From NCBI GenBank assembly GCA_964016885.1, contig OZ024743.1, positions 227,230,001-227,294,000 on the forward strand: a DNA stretch of 64,000 bases. The letters are read 5' to 3'. The notes under the pieces were generated by a model, which was given only the letters and a program-made list of their open reading frames with translations, had not been told where the DNA came from and did not search any database. This document shows, in pieces, positions 99 through 61,170 of this stretch (the first letter of the stretch is position 1; every line of letters begins with the position of its first letter). The translations under genes and the position numbers were made by a program. Origin of the DNA: Eledone cirrhosa (taxonomy: Eukaryota).

Positions 99-331
99 AT
101 CGTCAGGACGGTCCCTCCCACCGCTTGCGACTGCTGGACTAGAAGACGGGCGAGAATATATAGTTTCCTATTCCTATTCCTATTCATTTTCTATTATAAG
201 TTGAGCCAACTTATGCAGCTTCATATGCAAATGAGATTAATCATCTCCTTTACACAGACGAGAAAACTTATATATTCTCGCCTGTCTTCTAGTCCAGCAG
301 TCACAAGCGGTGGGGGAACCGTCCTGACGAT
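99..331. repeat. Divergent inverted duplication (~63-bp arms) of hammerhead-bearing element sequence
   Basis: 99-162 is the near reverse complement of 269-331; the left arm ends just after the CTGACGA core. Confidence 0.85.
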
Positions 332-362
332 GGCCAGTTAAGCCTGAAATGCATAGACAGTT
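316..362 (+). ncRNA. Minimal type I hammerhead ribozyme motif (Penelope-like)
   Basis: Stem I AACCGTC/GACAGTT, core CTGACGA (324-330), stem II GGC/GCC, GAAA (346-349), palindromic stem III ATGCAT, triplet AUA. Confidence 0.75.
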
Positions 363-1117
363 GTCCACCTTGCTTCTACTGGACATCACCAGAGGGCGTC
401 AGCCCCCCCCCCCCCGGTGTTTGCAGGGCTACGGCTTCCTAAAACCGTATTTCTTTGGAGATACGAAATATTTATACATATTGTATAAAGCTATGCTTGA
501 AGCGAATTCCTATTTCTTTTCTCTCTCTATATATATATATAAGTTTATTTTAAGAACTACCTGGTTGAGTGCTTATTCGATTTGTGTTATTTATGCAATT
601 GTTTGCATGATATACACATACTGAATTCATTTCCCAACATCTGGGGTTTTTCCCCTTGTGAATTACACATGTGCTTTTACGAAGCTCTATGTCATTCACA
701 AAATTGGTACAGAGCAAAATACCTGTTGATAACGTGATACTCCTTGTTCGATCATTATACCTAAAGCTTATAGTTTTAAGCAAACAGTATTATTGATTTA
801 GGTATCATAGAAACCCTGCATTTCCATTTTACCATCAATTCCAATGGGTCCAGGTCTGTTTTTTTTATCATTTATTTTGTTTTGATCTGTTTAGCTTGAT
901 TTGCTTTTTGGCTTAGATGGTTAATGCTTTCTTGACCACTTTTACGGTTTGTATGGCGTTTTGGCATATTGTTTAGCTCTGTTTTTTTAACTATGGAGCG
1001 CTTGCCAGCATAACTCTGAATTTTGCGTTTCGTTTCGCTTTTTCTACTCGCCGAAATACGATTCTCGCTGAATTTATATATATATATATATATATATATA
1101 TATATATATATATATAT

Positions 1118-1248
1118 GAGGAAAAGAAATCGAAAATGTAACTGGAATCTTTTTGTAAGAATGTTTATTTATTTCCTTTATCGGTTTCACATTTCTTATG
1201 CTTTTCAAAAATATAATTGAGATGGAGGGTTTGTGGTTTGTCTCGCAT
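1118..1248 (-). mobile_element. Short TA-embedded element, family A, with a U3-A8 hammerhead-like motif (1175-1211)
   Basis: Minus strand reads TTGAAAA-GCAT-AAGAA-ATGT-GAAA-CCGA-TA-AAGG; homologous to 25868-26132 and 35424-35570; flanked by (TA)n. Confidence 0.7.
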
Positions 1249-1547
1249 ATATATATATACTAAAACAAAGCAACAAAACGCACAAAAACAGCTGGAGTAA
1301 GAAGAACACCAACACCCACACCAACAATAACCAGACCAAAAATAACCACAGTAACACCACCGACAACAGTAACTATAACTATAATGGAATTAACAACAAA
1401 CTCAACAACTATAAACAGAGCAACTATATCCATAGTGACAAAAGCCACAATACAATGACAGAGGTAACAATACTACTACCACCACTACCAACAACAACAG
1501 CATCTACAAGCATCACAACCATAAGAGTTATAACAAAACCATAATAA

Positions 1548-1727
1548 CTGTTTCCACTTTTGGCACAAGGCCAGGAATTATCTCAGTTCATTACTGGTAC
1601 TTTATTTTATAGAACGAATGATGAAATGCAAAGTTAACCTCGGCGGGATTTGAAGTCAGAACGTAAAGGGCCGTAACTCTATGCTGCACAGCATGGCGTC
1701 CGACCCTCTACCGATACTGCCCCAAAC
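1548..1727 (-). mobile_element. tRNA-derived SINE, family with a Meta/Sauria-like central domain
   Basis: B-box-like TTCAAATCCC on the minus strand; 3' end GGCCTTGTGCC...GAAAC shared with many copies in the window. Confidence 0.7.
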
Positions 1728-3809
1728 CCATAATAACTGATAATAACATCAACAAATACCTCCACTATAACAGCCACAACAATAACAATAGCAATAGTAA
1801 CACATACTGAGAAGATATCGAGAAATACAATAGCAGCCACAAAATAAGAACAACAACAAAAGCTACAACAACGACAACCACTAAAATAACCACAGCTACC
1901 ACAGTGACCACCACCACGAAAATCTCCACGACGCCAACACCACCATCACCACTGCCATCACTACTGCTGCTGCTATTATAATGGTAAACGATTTTATGCA
2001 GACTTTGTACAGAACTCAGATTTGGTAGATAGATAAATATATATGTGTGTGTGTGTGTGCATATATATATATGTTTGTGTGTGTGTATATATATATGTAT
2101 ATATGTATATATATATATATATATATATATATATATATATATATATATATATATATATATATATATATATATATACACACACACACATATATATATATAT
2201 ATTATATATATATATATATATATATATATATATATATATATATATATATATATATATATATACACACACAAGAGAAAAGAGAGAGTGAGAGAGAGATAGG
2301 GATATATATATATATATATATTTAATACAGTAACAGAGATAGTTTAAATATATATATATATATACATATATATATGTGTGTGTGTATGGTGTGGGCCTTC
2401 ATTCCACTCCTTACTTTCCTATGTAGCGAGATATGTAAAGGTCAGGAGGTATTTCTTTAAAATTAATCTTGCTTGTCCTTCAAGCATAATAATGCACTTG
2501 ACCTTTCACTTAAAACTATATACTATTCTTACTCACACATTCGGATATACATACATACACTAACTCACGCATAAGGATATACGCATATATTCTTAAACAC
2601 ACATTCCAATATACATACATATATACACACACATTCGGATACATATATTTACAAACGCATTCAGTTATACATACACATATTTACATATATGGTTTTATTC
2701 ACATTTGGATATAAATACACAAATCCGCATTCGCAAATATAAAGGTTTATATGCCTATGCATCGCTGTTTATGTATGTATGTTTGTATTTATGTATATAT
2801 ATATATATGTATATATATATATAAATATATATATATATATATATATATATATATATATATATATATATATATATATATATATATATATATATATATATAT
2901 ATATATACTTAGATATAAAATAATACATCTATATCTAGACATACATACAAACGTACAATCATATATATGTATATATATATATATATATATATATATATAT
3001 ATATATATATATATATATATATATATATATATATATATATATATATATATATATATCCCGCTCACTCTATATACGTGTGTCTAAAGGTATAAATATATAT
3101 ATATATATAAATATATATACATATATTTATTTACACACATTCGTATATAAACACCCGCAAATATAAACATACAGATATATACTTGTCCGTGTATCTTTCT
3201 TTATGTTTATATGTATGTATGTATTTATTCTTAAACATGAAATACGTATATCTTTATATATATATATATATATATATATATAAATACATACACGCGGTCA
3301 CACACTTACATACACACACATATATATATATGTGAGCGTGTAAGTCTTTAAATACGTGTATCTATGTATGTATGTATGTAAGTATGTATGCATGTATGTA
3401 TATATGTATGTATATATTTATGTATATATGTATGTATGTAAAGTGGTGTAATTTTGCAAGCAATATGTCATGCCACAATATCCTTTATTTGATGTTAGGA
3501 AGAAAAATTAACCAAAACACAAGAGACAATTGCCTCTCTGTGTGAGACCACAACATTCCTTAGTGTTAGGAACTGGGAGAGGAAGAGGTGGTGGATGGAC
3601 AGTTAGAGGGTTAGGAGCAGGTTTACAAGTTGTTGGGGAGGGTTATCAATGGTAGTAGGTGGAGGAGAGACTTTATTAATAGAGGTGGTAGTAATGGTGT
3701 AGCTTTCCTGATGGCATTCCTGCTATGTGATGATGACACTGGAAGAACTTTCGTGATAATGATTATGGTGACGTTTCGGATGCCAGTAGTATTGATACGG
3801 ACAAAATTA

Positions 3810-59292: not shown

Positions 59293-59338
59293 ACCGAGCT
59301 GATGATCCACCGCGTAAGGTGAAACACTTGTTATCGGT
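59293..59338 (+). ncRNA. Degenerate hammerhead motif in a TA-flanked insert (59219-59370)
   Basis: ACCGA/TCGGT stem I, CTGATGA (59299-59305), GAAA (59321-59324), CA-CT-TG stem III. Confidence 0.55.
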
Positions 59339-59531
59339 AATGGTGAACTAACTGTTGTGGAACTATTACTTATATATATATACTATATATATATATATAT
59401 ATATATATATGAAAATGAAAATGAAAATGAAAATGAAAATGAAAATAAAAATGAAAATGAGCGGAACAAGTAAACATTAAACAATCTTTGAAATAAATTA
59501 AAATACGATTTAAATATTCACCTGTTCTAGG

Positions 59532-59611
59532 GCTGTGACCGACGGTTTTGCTTATCAAAAGATTGGAAATTCAGAGAATTTCCAATGGAAAATATTAACT
59601 CTTCAGACAGC
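59532..59611 (-). ncRNA. Type I hammerhead with a G12A substitution
   Basis: GCTGT/ACAGC stem I, CTGAAGA, long stem II with TTGGAAATT/AATTTCCAA, AAAA in place of GAAA, CCG/CGG stem III, GUC. Confidence 0.7.
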
Positions 59612-60268
59612 TATTTCCATACCACAGGGAACAAAGCCTTGTAGTAGTAGATATATCGCCTTCAACCCAATGCATGAGGTCAGGCCGTTAAAGTGACTCA
59701 CACATAACTAGGCCATAAGAAAAAGCAGGAATTATAGACTTGTTGAAATTACATGTTACTAGATACATGTTACACGATACAACATTTTTTTCTCTACATA
59801 GAAGGTGAATACAAATAAATGATATAAATATTCCAGTAGGCACTAAGTACCCCCGGAAATATACATGGTGTCTATAACAGTTGTTGTTCGATGTATATAT
59901 ATATATGTAAAAGGTAAACAGAAATAACAACACAATCGATACAGTACATGGAAGGGATATATTAAGTTAACGCTACATATACAAACAAACAATACTGACT
60001 TAAGCGAAATATAAATAAATAAATAAATATATATATACACATGCACAATAACAACAAACACATATAAACACACACTAATAAACTAAGATAGAATACAATA
60101 ACCAAACCACAGTCACCCAAACGCGAACACACACACCAAACACTATACACATACGCAAACGCATGCGCAGAGACGAAGACAAAAATAAATAAATAAATAA
60201 ATAAATAGATAAAATAAAAATGGCGTAGACATTACAATACATACAATACAGTAGGGGAAACATGATAA

Positions 60269-60320
60269 TAGTACCACTGATGATGTTGCAGATGTGCAAC
60301 GAAAGAACTTTGTTAGACTA
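60269..60320 (+). ncRNA. Degenerate hammerhead motif
   Basis: CTGATGA-T-GTTGC-AGATGT-GCAAC-GAAA; stems I and III eroded. Confidence 0.5.
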
Positions 60321-60342
60321 TATATATGTGTTTATATCAATG

Positions 60343-61170
60343 TATAAATGAAAGGTAGAGTTAATAACTCATACTGAAACCCTGTAATTAACAAGCTCAA
60401 AGTATAAATACTGAACATTATAATAATAATATATGCAGTAATAAACACAGCAAATTGTGTGTCTAATATTACGAGGGTTGAAGAACCACATTTGTTTGAA
60501 ATATTTTACAATGCAGCAGACAGAATGATAAAAAATATTTATACAGACCGCCTCAATAACGATTACATCTCCCGGACAGATTAATCTGTTTCGCCCTGAG
60601 TGTGTTTGTAACAGATAATCCACGGGCATCATCAGCGAGAGAATCTGATTAAATGCGACAAACACCTAATGCTAACAGTCACACAAAAAAGTGAATACTT
60701 CACCTCGTGCGCCGTAAGTCAAAAGTGGTGTGAGTGGATTGGCCTGAAATAACAGCCCAATACACACAACTTATAAGCTCATCTAGGAAGGGAGCCGAAA
60801 TATAAATGAAAGGTAGAGTTAATAACTCATACTGAAACCCTGTAATTAACAAGCTCAAAGTATAAATATTGAGCATTATAATAATAATATATGCAGTAAT
60901 AAACACAGTAAATTGTGTGTCTAATATTACGAGGGTTGAAGAACCACATTTGTTTGAAACATTTAACCATGAAACAGACAGAATGATAAAAATATTTATA
61001 CAGACCATAATCTGTCCTGGAGATGTAATCGTTATTGAGGCGGTCTGTATAAATATTTTTATCATTCTGTCTGTTTCATGGTTAAATATTTCGAACAAAT
61101 GTGGTTCTTCAACCCTCTTAATATTAGACACACGGTTTACTGTGTTTAACATTGCATATATTATTATTAT
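60343..61170. mobile_element. Retrozyme-like locus: 458-bp unit (~1.45 copies, - strand) plus an inverted arm
   Basis: TATAAATGAAAGGTAGAG at 60343 and 60801; 61008-61170 is an inverted copy starting inside hammerhead stem III. Confidence 0.85.
60568..60642 (-). ncRNA. Type I hammerhead ribozyme
   Basis: Stem I TCTCTCG/CGGGAGA, CTGATGA+T, stem II GCCC/GGGC, GAAA, palindromic stem III CAGATTAATCTG, GUC. Confidence 0.85.

Follow-up and report, generated by a model that had tools for sequence, protein, structure and literature searches.

The subject of this analysis is a 64,000-nucleotide (nt) stretch of the Eledone cirrhosa genome (contig OZ024743.1, positions 227,230,001 to 227,294,000; hereafter the window) and ten inverted duplications in it that are associated with hammerhead ribozymes. 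These duplications are Penelope-like element (PLE) insertions, a known kind. In the families that we counted, the two arms lie head to head, every family has two fixed 3′ ends, and most classified pairs carry one of each. Based on these observations, the best model is one in which both ends of a DNA break prime reverse transcription in a coordinated manner on one RNA, through the PLE reverse transcriptase (RT)/GIY-YIG protein, and we regard this model as probable. The counts of paired ends and of 5′ walls given below sharpen the known PLE layout into a testable mechanism.

Orientation, fixed ends, and 5′ walls

Family A, to which the window loci at 19228 and 35257 belong, has 22,399 exact matches to its tail and 39,004 to its stem III in the genome; family B has 10,949 exact matches. 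The family A sample was drawn from C1:0-16.3 Mb and consists of loci that match family A exactly, namely, 60 loci from exact-match searches and 40 of the 45 further regions listed. Its 165 arms form 65 head-to-head pairs and leave 35 arms outside such pairs; eight tail-to-tail neighbours were found, each across a TA-rich spacer of 40-216 nt, as were two direct neighbours. In the tandem families described below, 87 head-to-head pairs compare with 2 tail-to-tail pairs (across TA). When all sampled DNA is counted, 60 junction-biased loci among it, there are 227 joined same-family head-to-head junctions and no joined tail-to-tail junction, and the six same-family tail-to-tail neighbours lie across TA. 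The divergent orientation asserted by an earlier reading made from the letters of the window alone (the sequence-only reading) thus extends to the genome sample. Pairing is rare among the 103 copies of short interspersed elements (SINEs) in the same loci (2 head to head and 1 tail to tail). The head-to-head bias and the one-sided tail of PLEs are already published (PMC3846280, PMC8557442, and PMC2377424). Junction sequences are distinct in 39 of 43 cases, which points to independent insertion events.

Each family has a short and a long 3′ end, and in family A the 165 arms end mostly at +61 or +142. Sixty of the 65 family A pairs join a long to a short end, one is long plus long, none is short plus short, and four are unclassified. 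In the young subfamily of A, the short-plus-short pattern occurs genome-wide at 20 loci (36 strand matches), compared with 12 short-plus-long loci in 16.3 Mb, or about 2,200 across the 3.0-Gb genome if density is even. All 17 family B pairs are long plus short; two of these loci, L179 and L180, look like one duplicated event. The 87 tandem family pairs comprise 54 long plus short, 7 short plus short, no long plus long, and 26 unclassified. Family I yielded too few pairs to count. Loci of family F with a short end on both sides are L226, L230, L231, L233, L239, and L240. We found no paper that counts this one-of-each rule or maps the junctions to start sites; subscription papers and supplements may do so.

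At the other end of the arms, junctions pile up against a wall. Among the 116 family A arms that reach +12, 94 stop within the 11-nt window from -4 to +7; the others are 14 long copies, one stop at -8, and seven stops at +8 to +12. In the long copies, a TATA-like box is present at -29, and the wall itself, which lies within loop II of the hammerhead, coincides with an initiator-like sequence. Family B was assessed from its promoter, leader, hammerhead, and two ends; 33 of its 64 arms stop at -3 to +11, and 10 are long. This wall lies 30 nt behind TATAAAA, with CCAAT at -80, and about 40 nt upstream of the ribozyme core, and family B copies that stand alone, with no second arm, have the same +1 start. 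Judging from the TATA spacing, the walls in both families appear to be transcription starts; a search for RNA runs containing the family A leader listed none. The wall goes with the TATA/initiator element whether that places it within the ribozyme, as in A, or upstream, as in B, and the cluster therefore appears to track the 5′ ends of the RNA rather than stems.

The earlier proposal that ribozyme structure dictates insertion architecture is not supported. The main cluster goes with the promoter-like sequence, and the enrichment of junctions at hammerhead stems that the proposal entails did not appear in the tandem families overall, in which 33 of 174 ends lie inside the ribozyme versus 30.1 ± 5.0 expected; in family H such ends are depleted. 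A limited role for the ribozyme does stand. In family B, a second cluster of 5 of 64 arms begins exactly at the predicted ribozyme cut, +73 (p ~5e-7 under a uniform null), a second boundary that we read as indirect, sequence-based evidence that a minimal PLE hammerhead may cleave in vivo. Two further candidate signals in family A were set aside, namely, a cut-site cluster of only about 5 of 149 arms, which is noisy, and a cap-derived G before +1, where 7 G versus 2 A is too few to use.

Two-ended priming as the probable mechanism, and its rivals

In the model that we favor, the PLE RT/GIY-YIG protein (of the Hydra clade for family A) would cut both strands of a (TA)n tract, and each free 3′ end would prime reverse transcription, one at a fixed inner site (the short end) and the other at a fixed site about 40-105 nt further 3′ (the tail end), usually on the same RNA. 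Both cDNAs would extend toward the RNA 5′ end, with the outer displacing the inner, and their tips would then be end-joined bluntly, through 1-2 nt of microhomology, or with a short insert. The product would be an overlapping head-to-head pair with a tail on one side only. Because the cDNAs would run to the RNA 5′ end, junctions would mark the RNA start, mostly a transcription start and sometimes a ribozyme cut; on long tandem templates they would mark random stops. The family A transcript would start at +1, with both priming sites in its leader (ATG near +232), in which only the 3′ half of the ribozyme would be present. Priming in this leader would yield short palindromes, and priming in the downstream repeat of a read-through RNA would yield full units such as locus L139. 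Short copies lose the upstream TATA box and so should be dead.

We also posit, more tentatively, a stricter version, which we take as a serious possibility that falls somewhat short of probable. PLE integration would be obligately two-ended and asymmetric, with a dimer setting the two RT sites at two fixed points on one RNA, extending both ends of the (TA)n break, displacing the inner cDNA, and joining the tips at the RNA 5′ end. The junctions would then be a fossil map of starts and of in vivo ribozyme cuts, and the family A leader, given that the promoter splits the hammerhead, would be unable to self-cleave in cis.

Could a single primed cDNA produce the same structures? If a tail-primed cDNA snapped back, whether on a ribozyme hairpin or close to its tip, and then copied itself to the short end, a self-priming route proposed in PMC3846280, long-plus-short pairs and shared variants would both be expected; 3 of the 65 family A pairs do overlap, by 18-27 nt, across the stem III hairpin, and in families C and E ends fall within the ribozyme mildly more often than expected (p ~0.02 each). 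However, fold-back cannot give short arms that reach further 5′ than their long partners, and in 17 of the 60 long-plus-short family A pairs the short arm is ahead by 8 nt or more, with the reverse in 4. Nor can it give arms without overlap (5 of these 60 pairs, with 55 overlapping), head-to-head joins of different families (L018 and L332, which make up 2 of the 229 junctions joined directly head to head), or a pair built from two haplotypes, such as the two known ones that L147 combines. Most family A junctions are blunt, overlap by 1-2 nt, or carry a short insert, and the family B wall lies outside the ribozyme, neither of which suits fold-back. Simple fold-back is thus excluded at the loci with outreaching short arms, non-overlapping arms, or two families, and as a general account we consider it improbable.

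These same observations bear on the two routes suggested by the sequence-only reading. That both ends of a (TA)n cut act as primers agrees with the two fixed 3′ ends, one per side, with the non-overlapping arms, and with the two-family pairs; the multimeric or circular RNA attached to that idea is unneeded for families A and B. Snap-back at ribozyme hairpins, the other route, is not supported, given a wall that is inside the ribozyme in A but upstream of it in B and the lack of overall enrichment in the tandem families.

Must both ends prime on the same molecule? Two separate RNAs in one dimer, with the geometry of the complex giving one end of each kind and with shared variants coming from one source locus or later conversion, would make strand displacement unnecessary, and the two-family joins and L147 need two templates. 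Mixed pairs are rare (those same two junctions) though many subfamilies coexist, and the arms share a variable block in 35 of 44 rows (2 spurious matches) compared with a shuffle mean of 10.9. That the arms mostly share variants suggests one RNA, and we judge the two-RNA account unlikely. We give much less weight still to the idea that DNA-level events determine the tail asymmetry and the junctions, whether endonuclease resolution of an intermediate (to which PMC8557442 ascribes the tail), re-mobilisation of a few master palindromes, or deletions in the palindromes at a later time. In its favor, palindromes are unstable structures, and the window has an example of conversion at 30130; against this idea, 39 of the 43 junctions differ, solo B copies share the +1 start without a partner arm, and tail ends match in vitro RT start sites. 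An assembly or library artefact from fold-back reads would fit the nearly perfect palindromes of young copies, but each arm breaks off at an element end, two different fixed ends are in use, the flanks are not the same, the arms differ by substitutions, and SINE copies in the same loci are seldom paired, so that we find this reading scarcely credible.

Several observations weigh against two-ended priming on one RNA or against the reading of its junctions as RNA starts. Besides the stem III overlaps and the C and E excess, the shared variants can also come from fold-back or from later conversion, as in the 30130 patch, and one-sided deletion after insertion could mimic long arms that stop short. 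Family F departs from the one-of-each rule, with 6 short-plus-short pairs versus 7 long plus short. In the tandem families, the signal within 3 nt of the cut site is weak (7 of 242 ends versus 5.4 expected), and the 21 versus 13.7 in a wider cut-site window comes from a window picked post hoc, one of three. The family A wall also resembles a splice acceptor and adjoins a weak hairpin; we judge the splice-acceptor reading unlikely, as the arms match unspliced sequence as far as -4 and no exon common to them is seen upstream.

Some sampled loci show other arrangements. L341 (G000:C10:35385100-35385460), the one tail-to-tail pair of family G matches, is a palindrome centred on (TA)n with upstream sequence common to both arms, and is probably a DNA-level fold-back at the TA tract. 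At L033, L061-L063, L069, L074, and L075, family A leaders are joined 5′ to other or unrelated sequence, for which template switching or second-end priming on other RNAs is possible. (TA)n tracts with several PLE families in clustered, nested insertions occur in the window at 35383-35422 and at L306, L328, and L332, and at L229 a SINE lies inside a family F tandem unit.

The window loci and the identity of their elements

Self-BLAST of the window gave 19 local inverted matches, compared with 0 in every one of 10 block shuffles, and a match at all ten loci named by the sequence-only reading. Orientation and limits of the arms, read against real family copies as references, are as follows.

100..520, left arm 100-169 (-), right arm 178-520 (+): family H head-to-head pair, 328-nt tandem unit; right arm runs with its long end into TA; junction well upstream of the hammerhead
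5446..5612, left arm 5446-5513 (-), right arm from ~5531 (+): family G pair; junction in the hammerhead core/stem II
19155..19350, long arm 19155-19288 (-), short arm 19290-19350 (+): family A pair (putative Hydra PLE leader); both arms end at the putative +1; (TA)n on either side
25868..26135, long arm 25868-26050 (-), short arm (+) beginning near GAAA: family B pair; long arm crosses the whole hammerhead; (TA)n on either side
30130..30941: head-to-head SINE duplication, a control; no hammerhead; ~175-nt patch identical between arms
35176..35385, long arm 35176-35317 (-), short arm 35327-35385 (+): family A pair; short junction insert
35422..35570 (+): solo family B copy, from exactly the putative +1 to the short end; hammerhead complete, U3-A8
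35748..36090: family I pair; left arm with an internal deletion and no hammerhead; right arm reaches the long end at 36090 and has its hammerhead at 35904-35945
37270..38102, left arm 37270-37594 (-), right arm 37591-38102 (+): family C pair, 323-nt unit; right arm of 1.6 units, long end
39263..40125, left arm 39263-39958 (-, short end), right arm 39972-40125 (+, long end): family D pair, 542-nt unit; junction outside the hammerhead
40169..40790, left arm 40169-40619 (-, long end), right arm 40602-40790 (+, short end): family E pair, 549-nt unit
60343..61179, left arm 60343-60991 (-, long end), right arm from 61008 (+): family F pair, 464-nt unit; right arm begins in stem III

At 10 of 10 loci the antisense arm is on the left and the sense arm on the right, and the arms overlap in content, both as the sequence-only reading had it. 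Its placing of a ribozyme in both arms fails at 35749, where the internally deleted left arm has none. It put several junctions in the hammerhead; an arm end is inside at six of the ten loci (5446, 19289, 26048, 35320, 37594, and 61008) and outside at four (99, 35749, 39709, and 40287). It had missed the one-sided tail beyond the palindrome (19155-19227, 25868-25927, and 35176-35256). The eleventh head-to-head duplication, the SINE copies at 30130-30934, lacks a hammerhead; in this SINE-dimer duplication (30130-30941), the centre and edges differ between the arms, and the whole looks like conversion between inverted arms. Hammerhead motifs were identified by eye plus folding. No hammerhead family was among the best 150 of 170 Rfam matches for the window, which are miRNA-type, driven by microsatellites and hairpins, and all below threshold. 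The pattern CTGANGA was rejected as a hammerhead finder, as its 32 matches are mostly junction junk because family A has a U3-A8 core. Contigs of four sequencing runs at 60330-61330 are too fragmented to count for or against the palindrome, and among the pieces listed none spans the junction.

The PLE assignment is carried by L139, which self-alignment shows to be a complete family A unit, with an inverted arm (long end), a partial tandem, a 786-amino-acid (aa) open reading frame (ORF), and the short end on the right. This is the layout of endonuclease-positive (EN+) PLEs, in which a partial tandem (the pseudo-long terminal repeat, pLTR) accompanies an inverted 5′-truncated copy and a one-sided tail. 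The single ORF has YRDD and a VIY..YIG segment, as expected of an RT with a C-terminal GIY-YIG domain; it has Atlas matches at 0.96-0.99, part of whose members carry HTH_animal, GIY-YIG, or RVT_1, and Pfam and PDB sequence searches with it gave no match. The hammerhead of family A, located in the pLTR as in other PLEs, is of the minimal type, with a predicted three-stem fold and the U3-A8 core variant described in PMC4209133. The protein motifs DKT, CxCx5C, CxxC, and CxH, together with the (TA)n target, fit the Hydra clade as set out in section 11 of PMC8557442, except that RWK reads RWR. By these motifs, family A is a Hydra-clade PLE. The Neptune and Nematis clades were rejected since they need a CX2-5CxxC linker and that of family A is CxCx5C. 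Families C, D, E, F, and H are short non-coding tandem units with periods of 323-549 nt and one type I hammerhead core each; by these features they are tandem non-autonomous derivatives, of the non-LTR retrozyme kind, likely moved by PLEs.

Relation to known systems

The origin of PLE tandem and inverted structures is an open question according to PMC8557442. What the very abundant young families of this genome contribute is counts, which favor two-ended priming over fold-back, one short and one tail end per insertion, and junctions located where the RNA begins; the intact Hydra ORF and its known priming sites open the model to direct test. Further, PLE leaders account for short palindromes in this genome that number in the order of 10,000 and could be mistaken for miniature inverted-repeat transposable elements or microRNA (miRNA) hairpins.

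In L1 twin priming, both break ends prime on one RNA, giving an inversion. Non-overlapping arms are expected there, whereas 55 of 60 family A pairs overlap; in the present families the overlap usually extends to the 5′ end of the RNA, and the second priming site is fixed. Twin priming is mentioned in bioRxiv 10.1101/2024.12.14.628481. In the canonical EN+ PLE units, Penelope and Pen2a_Av (PMC3846280 and PMC8557442), the head-to-head arrangement is the most frequent, the tail is often one-sided, and a TATA and initiator are noted in a pLTR; L139 has exactly this layout. In contrast, most copies here are a leader of 60-210 nt alone, tails measure about 40-105 nt as against 30-40, and our analysis adds counts for the one-of-each rule and the 5′ walls. 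With the Hydra clade of PMC8557442, family A shares the C-terminal GIY-YIG-type domain, the DKT, CxCx5C, CxxC, and CxH motifs, the hammerhead in the repeat, and the (TA)n target; it differs in its RWR for RWK and its unit of about 3.1 kb, the assignment being by motifs.

A biochemical parallel is PAc of Anolis (PMC11167929). In vitro, both strands of an AT-rich target are cut and extended, RT starts at two internal sites that bound the tail, and a dimer is predicted, all of which fits the two-ended model. PAc belongs to a different clade; its start sites showed no difference between strands, and in the text available to us the inverted pair is not modelled. The same work also weighs against part of our reading, as ribozyme cleavage was unneeded for insertion and no reads ended at the cut site. 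The animal non-LTR retrozymes of PMC7229834 and bioRxiv 10.64898/2026.07.22.740005 are, like families C, D, E, F, and H, tandem units of 320-550 nt with one type I hammerhead. Unlike the described retrozymes, those here have PLE-type short and tail ends and inverted arms; the word "inverted" does not occur in the available text of PMC7229834.

The window holds several other features. Two adjacent long open frames at 9526-14901 (634 and 1156 aa when measured between stops), of which the latter has endonuclease and RT motifs, are presumably an intact long interspersed element (LINE) of the Tx1/L1 type, and fragments of another LINE-like endonuclease/RT frame lie at 61753-63102. Dispersed 470-nt copies, 95% identical and in opposite orientation, occur at 27427-27896 and 49924-50396, and degenerate long GGT/TGG trinucleotide arrays occupy 17176-18560 and 45686-46614.

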